Shown here piece by piece: positions 4,540 through 62,337 of a stretch of DNA of 64,000 nt. The stretch is from a virus. Its lineage: Duplodnaviria; Heunggongvirae; Uroviricota; Caudoviricetes. Positions within the stretch are counted from its first letter, which is position 1. Each line of letters begins with the position of its first letter. A program made the position numbers and the translations under genes. The notes under the pieces are model-generated. The model did no database searches. It was not told the origin of the DNA and worked only from the letters and a program-made list of their open reading frames with translations. The DNA is taken from the IMG/VR virus record IMGVR_UViG_3300010362_000014, positions 10,740 through 74,739 of that record. The stretch is one strand, 5' to 3'.

Positions 4540-5417
4540 TGGTGGCACTTACCTCTAATTATACCTATCGTTTGGATACAGCTACCAGTACCGGTACTGT
4601 ACTCAATGATGATTCATTGTCATTTCCGTTTGTTGATATACAAAAAGTCGTAGGATTAGATTCAGCACCATACAGAGAAACAATACGTGATCATGAAGGT
4701 ACCGATGGTGGATTTATAGATGCAGAATTCGAAAAGGGACGCGATATAATACTTGAGGGATTGGTATACTGCGATCCTAGCAATGTAGAATCATACATGG
4801 ATACTCTGAAGCTTAACTATGCACCAGTTACTACGCCAGTGGAGTTTCACTTTAAAGGTCCAGGTATTAGTGAGAGACTATTATATGTAAAGCCACGAGG
4901 TGTCAGATACGATATAGAACAATTAAGAAGAATTGGCATAACAGCGGCACAATTCTTATTATACGCAGAAGACCCAAGAGTCTATGATGCCACACTTACC
5001 ACCGTAGTTATATCATATGGTGGAGACGCTGGCAACGGTTTTGCATTCAGCTTTGGATTCAATTTAGATTTCGGTGGTGGAGCATCACCGGCCGGGCAAT
5101 TTGTAACGAATAGTGGGAATAGACCAGCTCCAGCGACATTAACAATTCAGGGACCTGTACAAAATCCATTAATTGCTAACGATACAAATGGTGGTTTGAT
5201 ATCGTTTTCTAATACACTATCATTGACTGGATCTGATTCTGTTGTTATAGATTTAAAAAATAGAACGGCAATACAAAACGGAAGTACTAATGTGAGATCC
5301 AAGATGGTAACGGCTAATTGGTTTATGTTAGACGTTGGTTCCAACTTTATTAGATACGGTGGAACTAGTGGTACAGGTAGCACGCTGACTGTGGCCTACA
5401 GGAATGCATGGAGATAA
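4539..5417 (+). CDS. putative distal tail protein
   Basis: First gene after the tape measure protein. Start overlaps the TMP stop (ATGGTGG). Confidence 0.35.
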   Translation: MVALTSNYTYRLDTATSTGTVLNDDSLSFPFVDIQKVVGLDSAPYRETIRDHEGTDGGFIDAEFEKGRDIILEGLVYCDPSNVESYMDTLKLNYAPVTTPVEFHFKGPGISERLLYVKPRGVRYDIEQLRRIGITAAQFLLYAEDPRVYDATLTTVVISYGGDAGNGFAFSFGFNLDFGGGASPAGQFVTNSGNRPAPATLTIQGPVQNPLIANDTNGGLISFSNTLSLTGSDSVVIDLKNRTAIQNGSTNVRSKMVTANWFMLDVGSNFIRYGGTSGTGSTLTVAYRNAWR

Positions 5418-5420
5418 CAC

Positions 5421-6617
5421 ATGGCTGCACTAAATCCACCCGGCTTTCTGCAGAATGCTGGTGCTACCCATACTGCGGAGCAGATGCGAAATTGGCTATC
5501 ATTAGCCTTTGCAGGAAACGTTAGTGGAACCTCCCTTATCGCGCAGGGAGGTGTACACGGGGCGCTTGGTAATAAGCTTTCAGTTACCCAGGCTGGATCG
5601 CCAAATATGACAGTGATTGTCAAAAGCGGCGGTGCCATGATTCCTGGAACTGAAGGTTCCAAACAGGCAATGTATGCTGTGCTTAATGATGCAGATAATA
5701 CAGTTAACATTGCCGCGGCTGACCCGACACTACCAAGAATTGACATAATTGTATACAAGGTTCAGGATCAGGCGTATTCCGGTGGTACAAATACATCCTC
5801 AATTGTAGCTGTTACTGGAACTCCTGCGGCATCACCATCGCCGCCCGCGGCTCCGGCCAACTCGATAACGCTGGCTCAAGTTGCTGTTGCGGCAAATGCT
5901 ACATCTATCGTCAATGCGAATATCACCGATAAGCGTACGTACCTAAATGGCGTTTCCAAATTACCCGACGTTCAAAAATTCACCGCTGGTGGAACTTGGA
6001 CAATGCCAACCGGTGCGCGATGGGTACATATAAAATGTGTTGGTGATGGTGGAGGTGGCGGTAGTACTGCCGCAACTGGTGCTAGTGAGGCGGCAGAAAG
6101 TTCTGGAGGTGGTGGCGGAGGTTATGCAGAAGCGTGGTTTGATGCATCCGCATTAACATCTACCGTTGCGGTAACAATTGGTACAGGTGGTGCAGGGGGC
6201 GCAGCCACCGGATCGAATTCTGGATCTGCGGGAACCGGATCCAGTTTTGGAGCATTCTTAACCTCCAATGGTGGTGGTGGGGGAGCGGGTGGCACAAATA
6301 CTACTACAAATGCAATTGCTGGATCCGGAACAGGTGGTACCGCCAGTGTAACCGGTGGAATTTCCAGTATAGCAATAACTGGCGATGATGGCGGGAATGG
6401 CAGAGTAATTTCCGCGGGTCCAGTATATGCGAATTACGGTGGCGCTGGCCCTCTTTCATCTTTGAGAAGAGCTGGCGCTTCTGGTACTACTGCTGGAAGC
6501 GGTGGCAGAATATATGGTGGTGGCGGTACTGGTGCCCGTGCTGGTGCCTCTCAAAGTTCACAAGCGGGCGGTGCTGGAGCCGCTGGATTAGTCCTCGTTG
6601 ATACATATTTTGGATGA
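5421..6617 (+). CDS. glycine-rich minor tail protein
   Basis: C-terminal two-thirds are dominated by G/A/S/T runs (GGGGG, GTGG). Sits in the tail module. Confidence 0.4.
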   Translation: MAALNPPGFLQNAGATHTAEQMRNWLSLAFAGNVSGTSLIAQGGVHGALGNKLSVTQAGSPNMTVIVKSGGAMIPGTEGSKQAMYAVLNDADNTVNIAAADPTLPRIDIIVYKVQDQAYSGGTNTSSIVAVTGTPAASPSPPAAPANSITLAQVAVAANATSIVNANITDKRTYLNGVSKLPDVQKFTAGGTWTMPTGARWVHIKCVGDGGGGGSTAATGASEAAESSGGGGGGYAEAWFDASALTSTVAVTIGTGGAGGAATGSNSGSAGTGSSFGAFLTSNGGGGGAGGTNTTTNAIAGSGTGGTASVTGGISSIAITGDDGGNGRVISAGPVYANYGGAGPLSSLRRAGASGTTAGSGGRIYGGGGTGARAGASQSSQAGGAGAAGLVLVDTYFG

Positions 6618-9652: not shown

Positions 9653-10471
9653 ATGAGTGAAAAATATAGAAATTATTCCATACCAGATCTTTTGGATATT
9701 ATTAAGTCATTGCAAGATAGGGTTTCCAGATTAGAGCGTACACCACAATTAACAAGTTCGGCAGTTAATACAAGTGGAATTACCGTAACAGGAGGCAGTG
9801 TCATTGTTAGAATGCCTAACGATCCACTCGCCCTGCAGGGTATTATTAATATTGGTTCAAATGCAACAATATATGACGAAACCGGAATGTCGATATATAT
9901 AATAAGATCCAATGCTGTTGAGGGTGGTGCTGGAGCATATGGTTCACTCTTAATGGAACTATTGACGGTCGAAGGAAGTGCAGCACCAAAAAATTCTACT
10001 ATAAAATTCTATGATAAAACAGGATCGACGATCTTTTCAGATTCTTTGAATGCGAGGCAGGGATTTGATCACCCGAGGTTAACAAATACGTGGTGGGATC
10101 CCACCAACGGATATATTTCAACAACAAGCGGAACCTTTGCCGGTATTGCGGATATAAGGTGGTACCAATATCATCCACATATAAGAATCAGAGTATACAC
10201 CAGTAATCCAGCAACAACAACAAGTGAAGTAAGAATAGTCGATGTAAATAATAGTAATGCAGTGATCTCTGGTCCGCAGACTGGGCCGGCTAACGCTACT
10301 ACATTACTTGAATTTGTTGTTGCTAGATCATCTATGCTGAACGGAGCTAATATAAATGGTATAACGGAGCTTATTGAGGTCCAGCATAGACGTGCGTCAG
10401 GGGCTGGTACGTGTACTACATTAATGACGGAGGCTATAGGTATAGATCTGTCATTATCTAATCCGTTCTAA
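9653..10471 (+). CDS. minor tail / putative receptor-binding protein, paralog 2
   Basis: Paralog of 8804..9643 with conserved termini and a divergent centre. Confidence 0.4.
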   Translation: MSEKYRNYSIPDLLDIIKSLQDRVSRLERTPQLTSSAVNTSGITVTGGSVIVRMPNDPLALQGIINIGSNATIYDETGMSIYIIRSNAVEGGAGAYGSLLMELLTVEGSAAPKNSTIKFYDKTGSTIFSDSLNARQGFDHPRLTNTWWDPTNGYISTTSGTFAGIADIRWYQYHPHIRIRVYTSNPATTTSEVRIVDVNNSNAVISGPQTGPANATTLLEFVVARSSMLNGANINGITELIEVQHRRASGAGTCTTLMTEAIGIDLSLSNPF

Positions 10472-10704: not shown

Positions 10705-10763
10705 GCAATCAATACTCTGGATAATCGTTTTCCTCGTCTTAGGGGGAAGTGTTGGATTAGTTA

Positions 10764-36660: not shown

Positions 36661-36674
36661 ACTGAATCCATATT

Positions 36675-36968
36675 CTATCCTAACGTTATATTTGCTCCAT
36701 AATGACTACTAAGTTCTTCTTGATACATATCACGCTCACGTTCCATAGATTCCGCTAGCGCTTCGAAGTACTCTTCTTGTGTAATTATTCCCCTAGCCAT
36801 GAGGACTGCGACTAACGCCGAATGGTCCACCATTGCCGAATTTACACCAACTCTAAGATGCTTTGGCGATGTTTCTGCCCCATCAAGTTCCATCTTTGCT
36901 GTTACACCGGATTGCATCGCATGCAGAGCATCATGGTACCTTTGTATAGAGGATTCCATATCCGTCAT
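36675..36968 (-). CDS. hypothetical protein
   Basis: ORF. Confidence 0.3.
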   Translation of the reverse strand: MTDMESSIQRYHDALHAMQSGVTAKMELDGAETSPKHLRVGVNSAMVDHSALVAVLMARGIITQEEYFEALAESMERERDMYQEELSSHYGANITLG

Positions 36969-43705: not shown

Positions 43706-43886
43706 AGTGCTAGAATGAATCTCATCGAGGTGGCACCTGTATCAGAATGCGCAACGAGGCTTACGATCCATTCTAGCTTTAGAAGCAAAATCTTAGCCTT
43801 TACTACAAGAGCAACCGAATACAAGACAATCGAAATTGCTTCTAGCTTCAATCGTCCGTTTTATGTATCTATATCGTTTAGATTGC

Positions 43887-46645: not shown

Positions 46646-47565
46646 CTCAATCTCGATCTAATCGGCAAGCAAGCCTCACCCTGCTCAGATATCAATCTAG
46701 ACATTGCCGATCTTTTAATCTTTGCACATCCGTTTATTCCCCAACCTGGTCCCCACGAATTATGTAAGATATAGCAATCTTCCTTGAGATTGATACCCTT
46801 GGCCAAAATACAATGTCCGCCGGCCAATGATCCTGTGGGCTTTATATAGCCATTAATATCTGGCTTGAACATTCCCGTATACCAATTTATGCCAAGAACT
46901 ACTGGACCATGGTATGCAATTGCAGATGCAATCTCTTGTTCGGTATCTGCCCAGTGATACGACAAATAAAAGCTTAATGATGTCAAGACTTTGGCACCAG
47001 CAAGTACAGAGGTGCCTTCATAGAAGGGCACGGCGCCGGGATATGCACCGCCTGGCCATTCATCATTTTGTTGGAATTGAAAATAAAGCGCATTATTCTT
47101 AATAAGATTTGATACCGTATCAAATTTGACCAGGACTGGTCTAGCTAGAAGCTCATGTGAAAATCCATATTGGACACATGTGCCTTCATTACCTTGGTCT
47201 AGATGATATTGGTTTACTTTACTAAAACCAACCGACCAAGTGTAAGACCTAAGTGGAGCTGCAACATCTATGATAGCCGATATTCTGAAATTCCGGCTAC
47301 GAATGTCGGATTGCAAGATTCTACCAAGACGAGGATCAGAAACTACAGATCCATCCTTCAGTCTGGTTCCAGTTCTAGCCATTCTGACCAAGATTCTATC
47401 AAATAGGACCAAGAATTCATATAATATAAAGTGACTACCCCAACGATTGGGGGACTCAGCCTGGGGACAACTGGTATAATCGTTGGGGTAGTCACGTCTT
47501 GTTGTTACTATTCGTAATCTGTCCAATTTGATATGATATTCTGGAAGAATTAATATTCCATGCAC
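46642..47565 (-). CDS. papain-like cysteine peptidase (C1 family-like)
   Basis: Order of triad segments: NEGTCVQYGFSH (Cys) ... GGHCILAKG (His) ... ILHNSWGPGWGINGCAKI (Asn-Ser-Trp-Gly...Trp-Gly). Confidence 0.5.
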   Translation of the reverse strand: MHGILILPEYHIKLDRLRIVTTRRDYPNDYTSCPQAESPNRWGSHFILYEFLVLFDRILVRMARTGTRLKDGSVVSDPRLGRILQSDIRSRNFRISAIIDVAAPLRSYTWSVGFSKVNQYHLDQGNEGTCVQYGFSHELLARPVLVKFDTVSNLIKNNALYFQFQQNDEWPGGAYPGAVPFYEGTSVLAGAKVLTSLSFYLSYHWADTEQEIASAIAYHGPVVLGINWYTGMFKPDINGYIKPTGSLAGGHCILAKGINLKEDCYILHNSWGPGWGINGCAKIKRSAMSRLISEQGEACLPIRSRLR

Positions 47566-47801: not shown

Positions 47802-48145
47802 ATAGTTGTCCGGCAGATCTAACTCCCAGAAATAAATCTTATTTCTGATCATGACTAGTCTTGGCTTAGGAGGGTGCTTTAACCAGACAACGTTGTACTA
47901 CCACATTGATGTACTCAGACCGCAGACCAGCGAGGGCCTACGTCTAATATTGTCCATTTTATTGTTCGTTATCCGTTTTATTATCCACAATTTCTGATGT
48001 TATTCTAGCATAATTCTGGAATTGACTATCTGTCAGGGTTCTAATCTTTTTACCAAGTTCGTTTTGCCGTCTAGTTAGTAGATTTTCTGCTCGAATAACA
48101 AGTCTGAAAGCCTCAACGGCATTTGCAACTTCAGGATCCATCATG

Positions 48146-48229: not shown

Positions 48230-48710
48230 AGTTATATATTTTTACTGGCTTTGGCGGGGAGGAGCCGATACCCTTCGACCCCTCCCCTTTTTCTCGGATA
48301 AGAAACTATGATTTTCTACCGAAAATTGGGTCAGTATCCCACCAACGCCGTTTAAAGATGCAAATCAATCTTTAAGACTTTGCGTACTGCCATTATACGA
48401 TTTCCCCATGGGTATAGTCTTTAGAGTATATGAATATAATTTTGCAGGAATGAATATAATTTTGGAGGGGAAACCAGGATTCGAACCTGGACACAAATGT
48501 CACTGTATGCATCTGCTCGATTTGGTGTTCGTGCCTTTGTTACCACGAGACTAGAGCGATAATCTCAATCTTACATGGATTTATTTTGCCAATTAAACTA
48601 CTGCGGCACGACTTAAAGCCGCAGGATGGATTCGAACCACCATCTAATCCTGATGAGTTAGACTGATAATGAGTCTAACTATGTAACCCGTGCGCTCTAA
48701 TCACGGGAGT

Positions 48711-49448
48711 CTATGCGAAAAGATATCCAAAGACTACGTTAGATACCTTGACATTATCAACTTCTGTTGAATTTGCTCGTTCTCTGGCTACCTTTACGGC
48801 ATCGGTAAGCTTACGTACTCGTTCAAGTAATTCACTTGAACGAGTAGCCGGAATAGCACCCGAGAATCGTGTGGTATCCCAATAGCCGACGAGCACGTCT
48901 TCTTGATAGGGCTGAACCTGAGCCGGATGTTTTTCGGTCGCCTCATAGAGCACAAAAGCTTTCGGTACTTTCTTGCTTTTAACAGTAGTAGTTACCGGGG
49001 AGCGGTATGTTCCGGTAGTAGAATCAAATTCCCATTCAACCGAAGGATCAAGAAGTGGAAGCTTACTAACGAATGTGCTAATATCAACCAGCTTCTTTTC
49101 CAAGAAGAGAAGATATGTCACCGGCACATTTGCTAATAAAACGGTGCCGTCGATGATAACATCGGCTTTAGCTGCTGTATTACCAGTCTCTAAGGTGGCC
49201 GTCAAATCGAAAAGTCGAGAAAGTGACTTTGATGCTCTATCTAAAAGATTATCTACCGTTATCTGAACCGCATTGCCCTCATTTGGATAGACATCGCCCT
49301 CGTCATCCTTACGACGATAGACTCTGGTCAGTCCGCTTAGTGGTTCTGCCCGCTGTGAATCGTGGTGAACTTTGGTAAATGATGTTTCTGCTCTGTTCTT
49401 TTCACCCTTAACTAGGGCGATAACCTGATTAAGTAAGGCCATTCTCAT
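48711..49448 (-). CDS. hypothetical protein
   Basis: 245-aa ORF. Confidence 0.35.
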   Translation of the reverse strand: MRMALLNQVIALVKGEKNRAETSFTKVHHDSQRAEPLSGLTRVYRRKDDEGDVYPNEGNAVQITVDNLLDRASKSLSRLFDLTATLETGNTAAKADVIIDGTVLLANVPVTYLLFLEKKLVDISTFVSKLPLLDPSVEWEFDSTTGTYRSPVTTTVKSKKVPKAFVLYEATEKHPAQVQPYQEDVLVGYWDTTRFSGAIPATRSSELLERVRKLTDAVKVARERANSTEVDNVKVSNVVFGYLFA

Positions 49449-49654
49449 CCTTATCCAATAACAATTTTAAATTAATCGTATGGTACATCGTAGCCTCGCC
49501 GGGAATCGAACCCGGTCTTAACGCAGACCGACAGAGCGCAAAGCTAACCAATACTCAACAAGGCCAAGCGGCTAATATAGTGGCAGGCAGTCCCACTCAT
49601 CCTGCACTTTGGGCAAGGGCTAATTAGGAATCCCCTCGCACTATATTAGCCTCG

Positions 49655-49728
49655 TGGCTGGTAAGAGAATCGAACTCCTAACGTCCACCGTTCATAAACG
49701 GATTTGACGCCTCACCCAATATCCAGCC
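49655..49728 (-). tRNA. tRNA-like gene, anticodon arm non-canonical (possible tRNA pseudogene or unusual tRNA)
   Basis: Acceptor GGCTGGA/ACCAGCC, D stem TTGG/TCAA and T arm AGGAG-TTCGATT-CTCTT are fine. The anticodon region CCGTT-TATGA-AACGG gives a 5-nt loop. Confidence 0.3.
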
Positions 49729-50494: not shown

Positions 50495-50749
50495 TTACCA
50501 CCATAGCCACTGCGCGATATGACGGTGTTGATAAGATGGCGTTTCTATATCAGTTTCACTGTTTGCTCTATAATCCTTGATTGCATTTACTACATCTATG
50601 CGCACCTTCGCACGCTGCGGGCCGTACCATACGTGATTTATGTACCATTTCGGTGGGCTTCGAAACCAATGATATGGATAGACTTCTCTGTTTCTAAGAC
50701 GATATGGTACATCTTTGTCTGTTCTGGACATAACGTAGGCTCCTTTCAT
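50495..50749 (-). CDS. hypothetical protein
   Basis: ORF. Confidence 0.25.
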   Translation of the reverse strand: MKGAYVMSRTDKDVPYRLRNREVYPYHWFRSPPKWYINHVWYGPQRAKVRIDVVNAIKDYRANSETDIETPSYQHRHIAQWLWW

Positions 50750-50764
50750 GAACCTTACGTCATA

Positions 50765-51109
50765 TCAATCACCTCCAAGGTCTATATTACCATGAACTGA
50801 ACACGCCTCTTTAGGACAAAGGAAATTGTCATCATCAGGCCATAGTTTATTCGCTACTTCGCAGGGATTAGAAATTGGTTGTCTATAACGAAGTTTTTCG
50901 TATTTACATTCCAGACTCATGGCTGCGGATATTATACGCCATCCTATGTAATCCAAGAATTGAATTTTATAGGGTAGTTTCATTAATGAATTACATTGCG
51001 AACACAATATTTTTTCTGTTAGATACGAAACCGTGAGAGCCCAAAATGGAACATCGACAATTCTAATATCGGCGCCATCTTTATGATATGATACGTGAAC
51101 CTTTAGCAT
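50765..51109 (-). CDS. hypothetical Cys-rich protein
   Basis: ORF. Confidence 0.3.
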   Translation of the reverse strand: MLKVHVSYHKDGADIRIVDVPFWALTVSYLTEKILCSQCNSLMKLPYKIQFLDYIGWRIISAAMSLECKYEKLRYRQPISNPCEVANKLWPDDDNFLCPKEACSVHGNIDLGGD

Positions 51110-51120
51110 ATAAAACCCCT

Positions 51121-51194
51121 ATTTAACCCCAACTAGACACAGATTGTGGTTTAACTAACCCTACCGCCCATGGAGATCTGTGTCTAGTTGGGGA
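51121..51194. terminator. perfect 18-bp inverted repeat hairpin (CCCCAACTAGACACAGAT ... ATCTGTGTCTAGTTGGGG)
   Basis: Read directly from the sequence, immediately upstream of (5' to) the minus-strand gene 50765..51109. Terminator versus operator role is unresolved. Confidence 0.4.
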
Positions 51195-51590
51195 GTGTAT
51201 CATTTCTGTATACTTTGGTACATATTAATTATGTGTGGGACCAGGCCAATCATATGTCGGGCCGGGCCAGTCAGTGAATTCCCAATCCATAATAATCCTT
51301 AAAGTTAACATTAATATTATAGCCGCTTTACATTACGTTGGGTTCTCCACGAATGGATTTACAATTCAGACTTTTTGGGTCTAATGAGCCTCAATTATAA
51401 AGGGAAATAGGTGTGGTGGTGCCATTCCTAACCCCTACCTGTAAAAAGCTACCTTATTCATCCTAAGCTTGTTCTTAATTTATCCTAAATCAAGCCCCGC
51501 ACGAAAGGAATACATTATTCAATCGCAGAGGTTTAAACAAGCTCCTGTCCGGCATTTGTATAGGATCCGAAAGATAGCAAAACGTGAACG

Positions 51591-51665
51591 AGCCTTGCGT
51601 GAGGTTCGAACTCACAACCTAATCCCTACAATGGATTTGCTCTGACCAATTAGAGCTAGCAAGGC
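51591..51665 (-). tRNA. tRNA-Thr (anticodon TGT)
   Basis: Acceptor GCCTTGC/GCAAGGC, D arm GCTC-TAATTGGTCA-GAGC, anticodon stem AATCC/GGATT with loop ATTGTAG, T arm GTGAG-TTCGAAC-CTCAC. Confidence 0.75.
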
Positions 51666-53243
51666 AGCGTCCAGATGGCGATATAGAGCCCTAGCAGTCA
51701 TACGAAGGATAATCGCCATCTGGACTAATCCGGATCATATGCCAGGGAGAGCACGGATCCGGAAACTTACTTGTGGTAATCCACTAAGACCGACTGAGAA
51801 TCAGTCTTAGGATGCGGTGTTCGGATTATTCCTATGCACCTATATCTACAGCGGTATCCCTTGTCTCTAGTATTTCTTAGAAACAAGGATGGTGGGCACA
51901 CATTTGTCGTTTAAGACAGGCATACTGGCGATCAACCCTTCTGCCAGCCCCCACCATGAAATCTCATTGATAAATGAGATTCCTGAAACCTAACCCCAGA
52001 AGAAGTTAGGTGGTAAACCTGTTTTAGATGTCTGAGATCAATGTGATTTCCGGTCTGTAGTATTCTTTAACAGAGAAGTAGCCGTTAATCTTCACACCAG
52101 ACACCTAAAGTTGTTCAATATATTTGGGTTCTCAAAGTTGAGGGTGGGTGGGGATATATCAAGAGTAGTGGTTCTCGATACATTGCCCCACCCTGGATGA
52201 AATTAGATTCACTGTTTCCATAAAATGGAACCCCTCACAAAATTTATGAAAACAGCAGGGCCAGACCTCCATAATTTCATCCATCTGGGTGAAGAACATC
52301 ATATTCACGTGTGGTAGCAGCCATACGTGAATATACCAAACAGATGATATCTTCACCCATTTGATGAAGATATGCACTCACTTATTCGGTTCCACGAAAC
52401 CACGAATTTCGTGGAGGGTGTGATCCGGGTATAAGCAGTGTCCAACCATATCTTCATCTTGGTAATGCTAAGGACCGGACATAATAGTCCCAGGCATCAC
52501 CCAGACACGGTCGCGACTGATGAATGTAAAACGGACAGAAAAACATTCAACGCGGCTGACCGTATCATCAACAAAAGCTTTTTACAATCTAGAAATCTTA
52601 TTTATCCGTTTTATATAAAGATGTCGCACATGGAATTATCAAGTAGACAAGTCGATGCCGGGAGTAAGCCGATCAGGTCTGTCCTTCCCGTCGACGCCAT
52701 CAGTCTACCAAGGTGATCATGGTCTGTCAATGGTCTGACAAAATGTCCGAAAAATGATGATTTGTTCCATGATTTCTATATCTATTTCCTCATTTCTCTA
52801 ATTCTGATAGGAATTGTCTTTATTGGTTTGTGTCCGCCATTATCGGGGTTCTTATCACACTTACGATGACCCATGGAGTCAGTCCAATAGGTAAAATCTG
52901 CTCCGATTCGGATATCAACACCACAATATTGACATTGGCTAATTGGTCTTGCCAATTTCACCTCCTGGCGAAAATTGCCTCATTTGATCAAAAAAGGCAG
53001 CACCGATCTTTGATGCTATACTCACATTATGAGCTAGCTCCTCTAATCTGGTTGAATCACCAGATCCTTCATACAAATCCATATCATGCTCCAATAGACT
53101 TATTATATAACTCGCTTCATCTACAGTTAATACCAAATGTAAATTCATATAATCTCCTTAAGATTCTATTTCTTATAAACAATCGTAACCATAGACATAC
53201 TATTTTGTATATCTATGATTAAAACTATTCACATCCAAACTTA

Positions 53244-57866: not shown

Positions 57867-58508
57867 TTAGAAATCCTTAGTCTTGATTTTAACCATAATT
57901 CTATCGCCAGATCTGTCTAGTAGACCGATTGAGGTTACACCTACTAGTCCTTCGATTACTTGGTCTGAATTTGAATTTGAATTTATGGTAATCTTTTTAG
58001 ATTTTACTGCACTAATTGCTTCATGAATTGTTCCAACTTTAGAAATATCCATGATGGGAACACAATCTATGCCAAGACTTTTGGCTATATCTTCTATCGA
58101 GCTTCGAAGTAGCCAGAACCCTCCAATTAGTACATCAAATAAAATAAAGCTCATATCGGGTCGATAAACTCCACCCTTTTGTATACCGGCTCCATAACCC
58201 TCACCGTAAAGAATTGCCGAAGTATTCCCAAAGGTTTGCTCTAGCAATTCCTCCGGAAGAAGAGAATCTAGAACGGTAATGAGCTTGGCTGGTATCTGCG
58301 CATTATCCGTACGACCACCATAGGTAATCTTATAACCATCCCAGGATATGCGTATGTTGGTACCGTCAATTTTTTCTGTCCAAACCCAGTTGCTATTTTG
58401 TAGATATTCGAGTTCTGGAGTTGCCCAATCGCCTATAATAAACTTATTACGATTGGGACCATCGGTATGTCTTTTATATGGACTAGGAATCTTTGGATAT
58501 GTTCTCAT
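57867..58508 (-). CDS. putative RNA ligase (nucleotidyltransferase KxDG superfamily)
   Basis: Motif I WTEKIDGTNIR (K-x-D-G) near the N-terminus. Size and motif spacing resemble small Rnl-type ligases. A DNA ligase is not excluded. Confidence 0.45.
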   Translation of the reverse strand: MRTYPKIPSPYKRHTDGPNRNKFIIGDWATPELEYLQNSNWVWTEKIDGTNIRISWDGYKITYGGRTDNAQIPAKLITVLDSLLPEELLEQTFGNTSAILYGEGYGAGIQKGGVYRPDMSFILFDVLIGGFWLLRSSIEDIAKSLGIDCVPIMDISKVGTIHEAISAVKSKKITINSNSNSDQVIEGLVGVTSIGLLDRSGDRIMVKIKTKDF

Positions 58509-59702: not shown

Positions 59703-60390
59703 TTACGTCCAATCTTAGTGTGTTTATGGTTCATATGTTATATCCATTTACGATAGCGTATATAATAGTAACAATAACTACAATCGCAAAATAGCCTATA
59801 TCCCTTATTATAATTTAGATCATGAGGTTCTCTATCGGTCTTGGTTTTGATAATATCATGCCAAAATTTAGAGCGAGATATTATCTCATCACCTCGTGCT
59901 AGATACCATGTATCCAGATACTTAGCGATTCTAAACTTTGGCATCATACTACCTCCAGAAGATGCTGCTATTCTGGCCACAAGTCCGTCTTGATCGGTTT
60001 TTCCTTAGGTATGTCCTTAGATGTAACAGATATCAACTCGCCATATATATTATTAATATATTGCAGTAGCGCAGCCTTGTTATATGACCAAATATCACCT
60101 ATCCATGGAATGGATATCGCATAATATACTTGACCACTTGAGTCCTTATCGACTATAACCTCAAAACCAAATACATTCTTACCTGTAATCTCATACCCAG
60201 TATCTGGCATAATAATACCTTTCCATTTTGTATATTATTTTTGCCGGTTATTTTAGACTATCGGCAAGTCTTATAAGTATTGTTCTTGATTGTACATGAC
60301 GATATACATTCTGGAACCGCCGCCTCGACCGCGTTAGCATCTCCTTGGAGTCTCACCGTCGTCGACTAGGGCGTGGATCGCACTTGTGCG

Positions 60391-61209
60391 TCACGACCGT
60401 ACTTTTGTCGCCCATTCCTCATCGAGCGCCTTGCGGAGTTGCCTGACAAACGTGGTCGGGTCATCGCGCTCGAAAATCTGGCGACCATACGCGACGCCAG
60501 CAGCGCCCGCTTGGATCGCAGATCGCGCCTTTGCGATGGCTGCGCCGGCGTCGACGAGCGCTTCGCCTGCGATTACGAGCGGCACTCCCATCGCGGCGTC
60601 GATCACCGTCCGGAAGGACTCCACGGAACCGGTGTACATGGTCTTCACGACACTCGCGCCCAGTTCTACCGAGGTTCGTACGCAGTGGCGGACCAGCCTC
60701 GCGTAGGAATCTGGATCGTCCGATCGCAGCTCGAGGTAGTTGTTGTCGCCACCGTCAGACGTGCGACCCCGTGGGTACGCCATCGCAACGACGGGGATGT
60801 CCACTCCGGTCGCCTTGCTGGCCAGCTGAGCGAGCTGCCGAGTCGCCTGTCGTTCGTACGGCGAGGTGTAGTTCACGTGAAAGGCGACGGCGGCTGCGTC
60901 GAGCCGTACCGCATCTCTCATTCGGCCGATCGGCACCTTTTGCGTGTGTTCGACGAGCGTGGTGCTGCCACTCATGTTGAGGATGAGGGGAACGTCCAGC
61001 AGCTGGTCGGCGCAGGCGGCAAAAGTACCTCGGAAGCCGATGACAGCATCGATGTGGTGGACGAGTTCGGCTTGAAGTAGGACGCGTGGGCGGCGCAGGC
61101 CTACTTCCGGACCGGCGATCAGTGAATCATCAAGCGGAAGCCAAAGGGCAGCTTGTCCTGCCGGCAGCAGCCGATGGAGTCGTCGTCGGACCCCAGTCGC
61201 ATCTGACAC
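60391..61209 (-). CDS. class I aldolase, DhnA/FbaB-type (DeoC/LacD TIM-barrel aldolase family)
   Basis: 272 aa with overall similarity to the archaeal-type fructose-bisphosphate aldolase / ADH synthase family (VVAMAYPRG, VKTMYTG Lys region, VIAGEA). Local GC is about 65% against a flanking value near 40%. Confidence 0.6.
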   Translation of the reverse strand: MSDATGVRRRLHRLLPAGQAALWLPLDDSLIAGPEVGLRRPRVLLQAELVHHIDAVIGFRGTFAACADQLLDVPLILNMSGSTTLVEHTQKVPIGRMRDAVRLDAAAVAFHVNYTSPYERQATRQLAQLASKATGVDIPVVAMAYPRGRTSDGGDNNYLELRSDDPDSYARLVRHCVRTSVELGASVVKTMYTGSVESFRTVIDAAMGVPLVIAGEALVDAGAAIAKARSAIQAGAAGVAYGRQIFERDDPTTFVRQLRKALDEEWATKVRS

Positions 61210-61566
61210 GGAATCTCCTCATTCCTGTAATGGGTCTACCTTCATGTCGTAGGCAGCAAATAATACCAATGCATTAATCGGACATGATAGTATACATTCT
61301 GTCAAAGAATGTATACTGTCAAATCTAACTAATCCGTTTTTATGTCCTCACGCAGTTCCGGAATCGAATTACGTCTCTTATGCTTCAAGATTTCCTCAGC
61401 TAATTTTACGAGTTGATCTCCAAATTGCTCATGTAGATTCCTGTTCGTTTATTCTAACAGATAAGGATTCTCTAGATCCGTTTAGTCAAACATAGCAAAA
61501 TAGGGGTTCTTATGAACCCCTATTCTACTAAACTCGACTAACCATGAGGTGTCAAGTTTGTGTCAC

Positions 61567-62337
61567 CTATTCGTCAGAATTGTCTGAACTGTCAGACTTC
61601 TCGCCGTTACGGCCCTCTTTGGCATCGACCTTAGCTTGCTCAGCCTCTGCGAAACTGCGCTTAGCGTTAGTTTCAAGCTCATCAATCTCAGCAGCGGTAA
61701 TACCAGCCTCACGCATCCAGCGACGATATTTCTCGACTAGACCGCGCTTTGTGGTAGCTCGCTGTTCCCACAGGTCGGCGCGGGATTCGGCATACAGTGC
61801 CTGAGCCACCGGACCCGTATCGGGCCGAACAAACAGCTCACGCAGCTCATCAGGAGTGCGCTTAGAAGCACTCACCCCGGTAGCCGAGCCACGGGTAGAA
61901 AGCCGTTGCGCACGCTCGGTCCAGAAATCCAATCCTTGAGGCATCAGAACGTAAATAGTTGGCTTTACGTCTGGGCCATCATCGGGGTGGCGAACCTTAA
62001 CATGCGGAAGAGGCTCACGCTTGGCATTAGCAGCCTGATATACATTAGGCGGCAAAACCATACCAAACTTGTGCTTGCCATCATCACCCACATAATAGGT
62101 CAGAAACTCGGCAAACTCGCCAACCTTCATACTACCTTCGGGTGCCTGCGGCAATACCTCTTCTGTTTCATCGGCTTCTTGCTCATCATTATCTGAGACA
62201 GAATCCTCGGCTTCGTCGAAGCCATCGCCGTTATCTTCATCAGGAGTAGTATCCTGAATCTGAGTTTGCTGCGGACCAACGAGTTCATCAAAAACAGCAT
62301 CCACAGACGATAGGGTGTTATCCATGATTATCTCCAA
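61567..62337 (-). CDS. acidic hypothetical protein
   Basis: ORF with D/E-rich termini. Confidence 0.35.
   Translation of the reverse strand: MEIIMDNTLSSVDAVFDELVGPQQTQIQDTTPDEDNGDGFDEAEDSVSDNDEQEADETEEVLPQAPEGSMKVGEFAEFLTYYVGDDGKHKFGMVLPPNVYQAANAKREPLPHVKVRHPDDGPDVKPTIYVLMPQGLDFWTERAQRLSTRGSATGVSASKRTPDELRELFVRPDTGPVAQALYAESRADLWEQRATTKRGLVEKYRRWMREAGITAAEIDELETNAKRSFAEAEQAKVDAKEGRNGEKSDSSDNSDE

Follow-up and report, generated by a model that had tools for sequence, protein, structure and literature searches.

A non-coding array of abutting hairpins beside tRNA-Thr in a tailed phage: most likely an undescribed structured RNA

Introduction

GOLLD, ROOL and the Kayvirus lncRNAs are examples of large structured RNAs whose genes lie next to phage tRNA islands. 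Such RNAs are abundant in infection, and we know of no function for any of them. Phage T4 has the small structured RNAs rnaC and rnaD (species 1 and 2), which lie in the tRNA operon and are released by the tRNA-processing machinery; to our knowledge, no function has been assigned to these RNAs either.

GOLLD and ROOL are large ornate non-coding RNAs of phages and prophages. They are found beside tRNA islands, reach lengths of 0.6-0.9 kb or beyond and are folded into very extensive structures; their function is not known (PMC12286853). The Kayvirus transcripts lnc001 and lnc002 of phage K (0.6-1.15 kb) are non-coding and intergenic, adjoin tRNA genes and were defined by RNA-seq (PMC9241854). 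Y RNAs are smaller (80-130 nt), with a long terminal stem made of the 5' and 3' ends and a large internal loop, and some of them are processed with the help of RNase P and arise together from a shared precursor (PMC4201824). TIGR arrays, which occur in phage/MGE loci, consist of ~13 tandem stem-loops with variable, always palindromic closing stems and no shared repeats, and are processed in their linkers (PMC12045711).

Here, we analyzed a stretch of 64,000 nt (hereafter the window) from a virus of the Caudoviricetes (IMG/VR record IMGVR_UViG_3300010362_000014, positions 10,740 to 74,739). An original prediction had described positions 51110-52830 of this window as devoid of convincing ORFs and rich in long perfect hairpins, and had proposed structured ncRNAs, a replication origin, a packaging site or a regulatory hub. 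It is most likely that the region corresponds to an undescribed structured RNA made together with the phage tRNAs, because ~1 kb of it encodes no protein and is predicted to form about a dozen very stable back-to-back hairpins that end 3 nt before tRNA-Thr.

The array resembles GOLLD and ROOL in being phage-encoded, of similar size, tRNA-adjacent, non-coding and very highly structured: about 900 nt of hairpins lie immediately before tRNA-Thr in a phage region with 11 tRNAs. However, the fold of GOLLD and ROOL is multi-junction and pseudoknotted, whereas simple hairpins in linear succession are predicted for the array, for which no homologue family is known. With lnc001 and lnc002 it shares a long non-coding stretch between genes that adjoins phage tRNA genes, but those transcripts are known from RNA-seq and have no described structure, whereas the array is predicted from the sequence and showed no similarity to any phage record searched. 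Like rnaC and rnaD, it places structured RNAs with phage tRNAs, although T4 has two such RNAs and the array is a chain of 14, and the two would not be expected to be homologous.

Results

Structure and coding capacity of the region

The structured core could be narrowed to 51667-52566 on the minus strand, a segment of 900 nt in which ~14 stem-loops (H4-H19) abut with linkers of 0-3 nt and 67% of the bases are paired in the predicted structure. Its tRNA-proximal end stops 3 nt short of tRNA-Thr(UGU). Perfect inverted repeats were counted with arms within 120 nt, with expectations derived from 200 shuffles; the region had six of at least 10 bp (0.135 expected) and four of at least 12 bp (0.01 expected). 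Folding z-scores of 300-nt tiles over 51550-52600 ranged from -4.4 to -7.4 on both strands. In a 200-nt scan of the whole window, core tiles had z between -4 and -10, with -10.3 for 52001-52200, and eight consecutive tiles with z < -4 were observed nowhere else in the 64 kb. The minimum free energy of the core was -351 kcal/mol over 905 nt, compared with -204 to -247 kcal/mol in same-length coding controls, and 76% of its pairs had a probability >0.9 versus 25-33% in these controls. The centroid structure retained the local hairpins, and neither long-range pairs nor a multi-way core were left in it. The GC content of the region (0.42-0.43) is equal to that of the rest of the genome.

The exceptional structure is narrower than the interval named in the original prediction (51110-52830). 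Exceptional folding was found at ~51667-52566 and in one hairpin at 51127-51193, but not in 51250-51550 or 52600-52830, both of which folded at shuffle level (z = +0.1 for tile 51250-51549 and +0.4 for tile 52600-52899).

The claim that no convincing ORF is present was borne out. The longest ORFs are 92 aa (plus strand) and 72 aa (minus strand), every frame is closed by 16-43 stops, recoding of any single stop codon opens none of them, and the gene calls in three records left the region empty. ORFs in this region had also been called short and low-complexity; they are indeed short, but not of low complexity. The longest ORFs had no Pfam match and no homologues, the sole match being an artefact caused by a protein that carries 10 tandem repeats. 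The prediction itself had named a conserved protein gene of homologous phages in this place as evidence against it; no such gene was found as far as the comparison could be run, and the collections searched held no close relative of this phage.

Organization of the array

All four inverted repeats named in the original prediction are present, and three of them fall into a longer series of hairpins, which is described here from 5' to 3' along the minus strand. The core begins with H4 (52504-52566; 63 nt, 9-bp closing stem, -23.0 kcal/mol) and, after a 2-nt linker, H5 (52461-52501; 41 nt, 8-bp closing stem, -18.5 kcal/mol). The arms of the next three hairpins had been missed before. H6 (52363-52458; 96 nt, -38.2 kcal/mol) is closed by a perfect 12-bp stem (52363-52374/52447-52458) and contains 36 bp in total; H7 (52286-52359; 74 nt, -32.6 kcal/mol) has a perfect 10-bp closing stem (52286-52295/52350-52359) and an inner perfect 10-bp stem (52301-52310/52325-52334); and H8 (52194-52283; 90 nt, -28.7 kcal/mol) has a perfect 12-bp closing stem (52194-52205/52272-52283) and two inner arms. 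With zero linker to H8, H9 (52146-52193; 48 nt, -28.0 kcal/mol) represents the fourth of the predicted repeats, in which GGGTGGGG/CCCCACCC (52146-52153/52186-52193) form 8 bp around an inner 11-bp helix. It is followed by H10 (52014-52117; 104 nt, 13-bp stem, -28.2 kcal/mol) and by two short hairpins with 10-11 bp and 4-nt loops that together occupy 51958-52011, namely H11 (52011-51988) and H12 (51983-51958).

The second part of the series starts with H13 (51889-51957; 69 nt, 8-bp closing stem, -27.6 kcal/mol), a three-way junction with zero linker to both H12 and H14 (51859-51888; 30 nt, 11-bp stem, -13.3 kcal/mol). H15-H18 (51729-51840) are small hairpins, including one of 11 bp at 51809-51785 and one at 51763-51729 that contains the predicted CCGGATC...GATCCGG repeat (TCCGGATC/GATCCGGA, 51729-51736/51756-51763, 8 bp). 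The last member is the leader hairpin H19 (51669-51725; -29.0 kcal/mol). Its stem had been listed as a 12-bp repeat right next to tRNA-Thr and is in fact a perfect stem of 14 bp (51669-51682/51712-51725) that encloses a 29-nt interior and is followed by the linker GCU and the tRNA 5' end. The tRNA-Thr (anticodon UGU) lies where it was expected, at 51590-51665 on the minus strand (ARAGORN; Rfam tRNA, 51.8 bits). The two independent assemblies were 100% identical.

No shared motif or paralogous hairpins were found within the array, direct repeats and iterons were at shuffle level, and complementarity of the array to the phage's own tRNAs, its Y-like RNAs or the remaining window was rejected. An integron attC-like core seen by eye in H11 (CCTAAC...GTTAGG) was dismissed, as this hairpin is only 24 nt long and the annotated neighbours include no integrase. 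With regard to tRNAs or tRNA remnants in the array, only tRNA-Thr scored, and ARAGORN at thresholds of 70-80% gave results no richer than shuffles.

Strand, promoter and flanking elements

From 17 to 64 kb, the minus strand carries every gene and each of the 11 tRNAs, and it also gives the better fold of the core (-349 versus -309 kcal/mol for the plus strand), with 28 versus 20 G-U pairs and 1 versus 5 A-C mismatches. The minus strand is therefore favoured as the transcribed one, although the thermodynamic preference is modest and locally reversed (in 52150-52600 the plus-strand z is slightly stronger).

A candidate sigma-70-type promoter was found at 52702-52730 on the minus strand (TTGACA-17 nt-TGnTAGACT; 10/12 matches, with a perfect -35 and a TG extension). 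Transcription would start from it near 52695, directly 5' of the first hairpins. The candidate is a weak one, because it is a consensus match and the region is no richer in promoter-like sites than shuffles are. Its -35 hexamer is overlapped by a tandem 11-mer at 52719-52740 (ATGGTCTGTCA/ATGGTCTGACA in plus-strand letters), which, judging from the sequence, may be a regulator binding site. Between the promoter and the core, a weakly structured 5' segment (52569-52698, minus strand) contains three small hairpins at 52690-52659, 52658-52628 and 52626-52569 (-8.3, -6.6 and -4.8 kcal/mol, respectively). At the 80% threshold, ARAGORN reported a marginal tRNA-Val-like match at 52698-52619, for which shuffles expect 0.75 such matches. 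The scan for intrinsic terminators reported a few weak candidates (one position being 52505, others within H7), none with a proper U-tract, and the large hairpins have no U tails.

On the other side of tRNA-Thr, the minus-strand spacer to the next gene (51194-51589) has no ORF, moderate structure and one GGTAGGGGTTAGG motif (51445-51425). The z-score of -2.3 for 51105-51590 is mainly due to the terminal hairpin. This isolated hairpin (51127-51193, minus strand; -35.0 kcal/mol) is the predicted 18-bp perfect inverted repeat, with arms at 51127-51144 and 51176-51193 and 31 nt between them. It lies 17 nt upstream of the ATG (51109) of a 114-aa ORF, has no trailing U-tract, and may serve as a 5'-UTR stabiliser or RNase III site. 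A twin of this hairpin is present at 47431-47495.

Since inverted repeats fold alike as DNA on either strand and the plus-strand z is nearly as strong, we considered whether the region is a DNA-level element, such as an origin of replication, a site of cruciform formation or recombination, or a group of palindromes bound by proteins, and the tandem 11-mer at 52719-52740 would fit such an element. However, the arms are 29-72 nt apart, unlike those of operators, and two further features, the G-U asymmetry and the placement in register with the 5' end of the tRNA, are RNA properties. The proposed replication origin found no support either, given that there is no excess of iterons or direct repeats, no AT-rich unwinding region and no skew change or turning point in the cumulative GC skew. 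A packaging site is not supported, as the structural and packaging module lies past the opposite end of the window, at a distance of >50 kb. Taken as a whole, a DNA-level element is very unlikely. The proposal of structured ncRNA fared better, being supported by the extreme and well-defined folding, the lack of a coding frame and the fact that, on the strand taken to be transcribed, the array is in register with the 5' end of a tRNA.

Hairpins preceding tRNA genes

H19 is one instance of a recurrent module, which we defined as a stem of 9 bp or more, free of interruptions, whose end lies 2-5 nt ahead of the 5' end of the mature tRNA and whose linker has U as its last base. In the window, stems of this kind precede five of the 11 tRNAs, against a background of 5% (P = 1.2e-4). 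Three of the five stems are 13-14 bp long, and the linkers (ACU, UAU, GCU, AGU and GCUU) are U-terminal in all cases; H19 belongs here with its 14-bp stem and GCU linker. Bacterial RNase P prefers a U at position -1. Enrichment of stems before tRNAs was also observed in the distant relatives L008 (3/7), L009 (5/18) and L022 (7/23), each with P < 0.01, and was absent in the unrelated L003. In all, strong hairpins precede tRNAs far more often than expected by chance in four phages. All four have DUF7873 together with Y-RNA-like RNAs, and three have a Ro60 gene as well. This suggests that a hairpin before the tRNA is a general rule for processing or protecting transcripts that mix ORFs and tRNAs. 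Within the array, only the last of the ~14 hairpins is tied to a tRNA in this way, and the other 13 are left without explanation by it.

Comparison with Y RNAs and TIGR arrays

Two YrlA-like permuted tRNA-like RNAs are located next to a DUF7873 gene, 2-3 kb from the array, and in relatives DUF7873 adjoins a Ro60/TROVE gene. It is thus conceivable that the array yields Y-RNA-like or Ro60-related small RNAs, each a long end-to-end stem with a short 3' tail, made by tRNA-processing enzymes and acting with the DUF7873/Y-RNA module or with host Ro60. The size of Y RNAs, their long terminal stem, their cutting by RNase P and their shared precursor would be in line with this (PMC4201824), and the array has in common with YrlA, YrlB and Yrn RNAs a long stem built from the RNA's own 5' and 3' ends around an irregular interior. 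On the other hand, the GNCGAAN0-1G motif is absent from both strands of 51110-52830, the only T arm in this interval is that of tRNA-Thr, so that the array itself has none, and the unit sizes spread from 24 to 104 nt. Moreover, tblastn with two phage TROVE proteins detected no Ro60 (TROVE) gene or pseudogene below E = 2 in the 64 kb window of the 88.6 kb contig. We consider Y-RNA-like products quite improbable.

The array also looks superficially like the stem-loop arrays of phage/MGE loci (PMC12045711), as it consists of tandem stem-loops in a phage locus with variable palindromic closing stems and no shared or separating repeats. A TIGR-type guide array would carry two short spacers per unit for use by a Nop-domain Tas protein. 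In contrast, the dual CCA-N8-12-UG arrangement expected of box C and box D was found in 0/20 units (core 0 versus 0.38 expected in shuffles; diverged box motifs could escape this count), the interiors are mostly base-paired, unlike open spacers, and unit length is irregular (24-104 nt). No Tas protein was found: neither Pfam searches of the 10 nearest proteins nor the precomputed Pfam assignments of all genes in 40.8-63.6 kb revealed a Nop/IS110-type domain in the neighbours, and the DUF7873 model has no match to a Nop-like fold. The TIGR-type reading is largely refuted, with only a very slight chance left to it.

Homologue searches and conservation

The Rfam/Infernal check suggested in the original prediction returned no known RNA family apart from tRNA, the other matches being chance miRNA-like hairpins; GOLLD and ROOL thus do not match. 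Their covariance models had no match at the gathering threshold, nor at E up to 10 with permissive filters (50700-53200 and 51090-51600).

These searches bear on whether the array could be one large ornate RNA akin to GOLLD and ROOL, at least ~1 kb long, with tertiary contacts and perhaps self-assembling, of which the hairpins would be peripheral helices. Its size, phage origin and tRNA-side position match those of GOLLD and ROOL (PMC12286853) and of lnc001 and lnc002 (PMC9241854), and the structure is very stable and well defined. Some GOLLD RNAs have a tRNA in a linker region, which is reminiscent of the order observed here (array, tRNA-Thr and 480 nt more of non-coding sequence). Nevertheless, besides the missing covariance match, the prediction is a linear chain of local hairpins whose centroid keeps no multi-way core, long-range complementarities are weak (75-88%), no GNRA tetraloop or receptor-like motif was seen on sequence inspection, and no exceptional structure was found on the 3' side of the tRNA. 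An RNA of this kind therefore appears rather unlikely, if still worth keeping in mind.

Searches for homologues of the region itself gave no match with blastn and megablast against 50,697 phage records and nothing with nhmmer and blastn against 195 kb of related loci; as no homologue of the array was found, there is no support from covariation. Exact two-arm patterns of two hairpins had no match in viral contigs or 185,579 genomes, which argues against a MITE or a host-derived repeat. The neighbourhood is similarly isolated. The 114-aa and 69-aa neighbours had no homologue among 5.8 billion proteins, the only relatives of a DUF8296 neighbour were at 32-42% identity (IMG/VR, JGI metagenomes), and the best DUF7873 relative was at 67% identity. 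Nine of the 10 nearest proteins had no Pfam match and the tenth matched DUF7873 only, whose structure model (pLDDT 89.7) had no significant PDB neighbour and gave no functional lead. In L008, one of the related loci, two tRNAs are surrounded by abutting hairpins that fill a non-coding gap of 1.4 kb, and a contiguous array of ~1 kb was not seen in L009, L021 or L022.

The lack of homologues or conservation in the searches run would also be expected of non-functional filler, either palindromes generated by replication template switching and quasipalindrome correction, or orphan leader hairpins left after tRNA loss from a denser array. The hairpins have no common motif, and their closing stems are perfect Watson-Crick duplexes, which DNA-level palindrome correction could equally maintain. 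In addition, the tRNA arrays of relatives are far denser (24-25 per 20 kb in L009 and L022 versus 11 per 15 kb here). Yet the window has no second 900-nt run at z -4 to -10, the compact genomes of phages seldom retain 1 kb of junk, and the abutting spacing of 0-3 nt together with the excess of G-U over A-C points to constraint on the RNA itself. It is also implausible that 13 tRNAs were each deleted exactly, and no unit scores as a tRNA remnant. Filler is on balance unlikely. If the region nevertheless turns out to be untranscribed filler, it would be a caution that extreme folding scores alone do not establish function.

Discussion

Our preferred explanation, to which we assign a probability of about one half, is that the array is a non-coding minus-strand leader of ~1 kb that is co-transcribed with tRNA-Thr(UGU) and cut by tRNA-processing enzymes. 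Transcription would enter from upstream genes or start at the candidate promoter at 52730-52702. The nascent, untranslated RNA would then fold hairpin after hairpin, leaving little single-stranded RNA for Rho or single-strand-specific endonucleases. Based on the geometry of H19 and the U at position -1, we infer that RNase P cuts at the tRNA 5' end, which would release an upstream RNA whose 3' end is the 14-bp hairpin with a GCU tail. The rest of the chain may persist as one stable RNA of 0.9-1.0 kb, or may be cut into hairpin RNAs of 25-105 nt, either at the 0-3 nt linkers or inside the long stems by RNase III.

With respect to function, the most defensible proposal is that the released RNA plays a structural and protective role for a mixed ORF/tRNA transcript, and a trans-acting protein decoy or scaffold is possible. 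A more far-reaching version of this leader RNA, which we put forward tentatively and regard as rather unlikely, is that the array is the first member of a new RNA class in phages. As a polycistronic cassette of hairpins, it would release a dozen different stable stem-loop RNAs via the tRNA-processing machinery, or a single nanostructure of ~1 kb. In infection, such RNAs might act in trans, for instance by serving as decoys or sponges that occupy host RNases, defence proteins that bind dsRNA, or factors for RNA repair, alongside the phage Y-RNA-like RNAs, DUF7873 and RNA ligase.

The array shares the genomic niche of GOLLD, ROOL and the Kayvirus lncRNAs, but its architecture is far simpler, a plain chain of hairpins in register with a predicted RNase P site. 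Because of this simplicity, it could make the question of what such RNAs do easier to approach. The by-product of this analysis, the association of hairpins with tRNAs in phages that carry DUF7873 and Y-RNA-like RNAs, may matter more widely than the array itself.

The gene-free region and its hairpin array

The source contig (88.6 kb, of which the window is a part) belongs to an uncultured tailed phage, and the genes recognised include those for a tape-measure protein, family A DNA polymerase, primase, helicase and RNA ligase. The DNA polymerase has 29% identity to the best phage record, and the phage is far from anything cultured. From 17 kb to 64 kb all genes are on the minus strand, as are all 11 tRNAs, which are dispersed among small ORFs at 36.5-51.7 kb. 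In the source records the gene callers left 1.83 kb empty here. The absence of convincing ORFs that had been predicted for 51110-52830 was borne out: no open reading frame was found in the region, each frame has 16-43 stops, and stop-codon recoding was rejected since no frame opens when any single stop codon is recoded. The region is 100% identical between two assemblies from different samples; it is real, statistically extreme, unannotated, structured and non-coding. An uncalled candidate ORF of 59 aa with a CxxC...C pattern (52782-52961, minus) overlaps the end of a 69-aa gene and the start of the gene-free region.

The sequence contains each of the four inverted repeats listed in the original prediction: a perfect 18-bp repeat (51127-51144/51176-51193), a perfect repeat at 51669-51682/51712-51725 whose length is 14 bp and not 12 bp as first given, an 8-bp CCGGATC-type stem (51729-51763) and the GGGTGGGG/CCCCACCC hairpin (52146-52193). 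Four additional perfect repeats of 10-12 bp were located at 52194-52283, 52286-52359, 52301-52334 and 52363-52458. Perfect inverted repeats that span 10 bp or more within 120 nt numbered six, compared with 0.135 in shuffles (200 shuffles). The exceptional folding is likewise real, but it is narrower than the 1.7 kb originally proposed: in 300-nt tiles, minus-strand z was -4.5 to -6.8 between 51550 and 52600, and about 0 at 51250-51549 and 52600-52899. When the whole window was scanned in 200-nt tiles, eight consecutive tiles with z < -4 occurred only at this array (minima -10.3 and -8.1).

Folding with limited base-pair span resolved the minus strand of the core (51667-52566) into a chain of stem-loops with linkers of 0-3 nt and lengths, in order, of 63, 41, 96, 74, 90, 48, 104, 24, 26, 69, 30, 25, 25, 35 and 57 nt. 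Each unit is closed by an uninterrupted stem of 8-14 bp and has an interior of 3-72 nt. The core (905 nt) has an MFE of -351 kcal/mol, whereas length-matched coding controls range from -204 to -247; 67% of the core bases are paired, and pairs with probability >0.9 make up 76%, versus 25-33% in the coding controls. In the centroid structure, local hairpins were retained and long-range pairs were lost. No common sequence was found among the hairpins, direct-repeat counts being at shuffle level, nor any similarity or complementarity to the phage tRNAs or the rest of the window.

A second perfect 18-bp inverted repeat, with a 29-nt interior, is present at 47431-47495. It has CCCCAAC/GTTGGGG in common with the hairpin at 51127-51193, and each lies 17-19 nt 5' of a potential start codon; for 47431-47495 the candidate is TTG at 47412, in frame with a peptidase C1 gene that as called would span the hairpin.

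Comparison with known RNA families and related phages

Apart from the tRNA, searches of the region against Rfam gave nothing but chance matches to microRNA-like hairpins, and the array units do not qualify as tRNA remnants. The array is outside every described family, yet in the genomic niche of the enigmatic large phage RNAs. This niche would suit a single ornate RNA of the GOLLD or ROOL kind; neither of these large phage RNAs matched even at E up to 10 in Rfam, and we consider such an RNA unlikely. TIGR stem-loop guide arrays of phages consist of tandem stem-loops whose closing stems are variable but always palindromic, a description that on paper also fits the array here (PMC12045711). In contrast to TIGR, no unit has the pair of spacers bordered by CCA and UG, unit interiors are mostly paired, unit length is irregular and no Nop-domain protein is detectable near the array, which leaves a TIGR-like system extremely improbable.

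The array itself has no detectable relatives. The two small flanking proteins had no homologues among 5.8 billion proteins, two-arm hairpin patterns had no match in viral or genome collections, and the nearest relatives, recognisable only via DUF7873 (identity at most 67%), showed no nucleotide similarity to the region. Its architecture is partly shared: in one related locus (L008), abutting hairpins surround two tRNAs within a gene-free gap of 1.4 kb, and no comparable contiguous array was found in L009, L021 or L022. L008 also carries a hairpin element of ~65 nt (GGGTCGGACGAAAATCCGTTATCTT...AATGGATTTTCACTTAATATATCCA) in two copies upstream of tRNA genes (4660-4730 and 5387-5451), one of them holding a TTGACA...TAATAT promoter-like pair, and G-rich telomere-like motif runs (GGTAGGG / GGGTTAGG) on its sense strand (4770-4860 and 9722-9793), one directly 3' of its tRNA-Thr. 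In the window, a single short copy of the G-rich motif is at 51425-51445 (minus), ~150 nt past tRNA-Thr.

The DUF7873 gene (48711-49448, minus) has a confident AF2 model (pLDDT 89.7) with no significant PDB fold match. Directly downstream (48370-48700, minus) we observed two YrlA-like, permuted tRNA-like domains, both unannotated and missed by Rfam. The first combines a T arm (48641-48625) with an acceptor-like hairpin (48624-48601) and a D-arm-like segment (48600-48582). In the second, the T arm is at 48490-48474, the D-arm-like segment is at 48399-48381, and a TTTCCCC...GGGGAAA stem encloses a loop of ~60 nt. A YrlA-like pair is also 3' of DUF7873 in L008 (9132-9209, 9242-9398) and L009 (T arms 10257, 10402). 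In relatives DUF7873 adjoins or is near a Ro60/TROVE gene (L008 6236-7843, L009 7339-8976, L022 1-1629). The 64 kb window has no TROVE gene, and therefore within it the phage retains Y-like RNAs and DUF7873 without Ro60. With such neighbours, the array could itself represent Y-RNA-like small RNAs; its lack of a T arm and of the GNCGAAN0-1G motif, together with the missing TROVE gene in the window, makes this very unlikely.

An RNA ligase gene (PF09414, phrog_548; 57867-58508, minus), located 5 kb upstream from the array, combines with the tRNAs and Y-like RNAs to mark an RNA-repair/RNA-metabolism neighbourhood. In kind, we place the array with the structured RNAs that accompany tRNA islands in phages. 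Elsewhere in the window, 60000-62000 has local GC up to 0.51-0.54 (0.41 elsewhere), overlapping ORFs on both strands around a DeoC-like gene, and two strong hairpins (61263-61343, 61482-61541). Beyond window position 1 on the same contig (L020 422-634), a 70-aa gene directly upstream of the portal gene matches Pfam Acb5 (PF26761); the Acb families are anti-CBASS proteins.

Strand, tRNA register and a possible leader

Thermodynamics by itself does not distinguish RNA from DNA or between the two strands, and perfect palindromes could also act at the DNA level. The replication origin suggested earlier is not supported, with no iterons, AT-rich element or skew turn in the region, and neither is the suggested packaging site, the packaging genes being located past the other end of the window; we regard a DNA-level element as highly improbable. 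The evidence points to a minus-strand RNA element because the entire neighbourhood is read from this strand, because it folds better (-349 vs -309 kcal/mol for the core) with more G-U pairs (28 vs 20) and fewer single A-C mismatches (1 vs 5), and because of its register with tRNA-Thr. This tRNA-Thr(UGU) does stand beside the hairpins as predicted (51590-51665, minus), and the final hairpin (51725-51669), with a perfect stem of 14 bp, stops exactly 3 nt (GCU) short of the tRNA 5' end.

We propose, at roughly even odds (about 0.5), that tRNA-Thr is co-transcribed with the array, which would form its untranslated leader. Beyond the structure, missing coding capacity, strand bias and tRNA register observed for the array, its geometry suggests how such a leader might be processed. 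A candidate promoter (52730-52702; TTGACA, 17 nt, TGnTAGACT; a consensus match only) is just upstream of the first hairpins. Each hairpin could fold once transcribed, so that Rho and single-strand-specific nucleases would find hardly any single-stranded RNA. Cleavage by RNase P at 51665/51666 would give an upstream RNA ending in the 14-bp hairpin plus GCU, the kind of end that resists 3' exonucleases, and the chain might then stay whole or be cleaved at linkers or long stems. This model does not explain the dozen additional hairpins before the last one. The array might instead be filler without a function, rich in palindromes, or a set of leader hairpins left as orphans, as the absence of a common sequence might suggest; given the extreme folding confined to this array, we find that quite unlikely.

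The register of the last hairpin is not an isolated coincidence, because the same module precedes other tRNAs and recurs in relatives. A hairpin of 57-96 nt that has a perfect closing stem of 9-14 bp, joined by a linker of 3-4 nt with U as its last base, also precedes tRNA-Arg(UCU), tRNA-Arg(CCU), tRNA-Cys and tRNA-Asp, the hairpin-bearing 5' flanks being 36664-36752, 43709-43777, 47805-47891, 49563-49658 and 51669-51725. U at position -1 is the preference of bacterial RNase P. A 13-bp-stem hairpin occupies the entire gap between tRNA-Asp and an ARAGORN 'tRNA-???' (49654-49728; the whole at 49563-49728, minus) whose acceptor stem and T arm are normal and whose anticodon loop is aberrant. Stems of at least 9 bp ending 2-5 nt upstream were found at 5 of 11 tRNAs, versus 5% of all positions (P = 1.2e-4). 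The module was not enriched in an unrelated tRNA-rich phage (L003). In three distant relatives located through the DUF7873 gene, it was enriched at 3/7 (L008), 5/18 (L009) and 7/23 (L022) tRNAs, all P <0.01. The transferable result is a hairpin-then-tRNA module common to the DUF7873 phage group.
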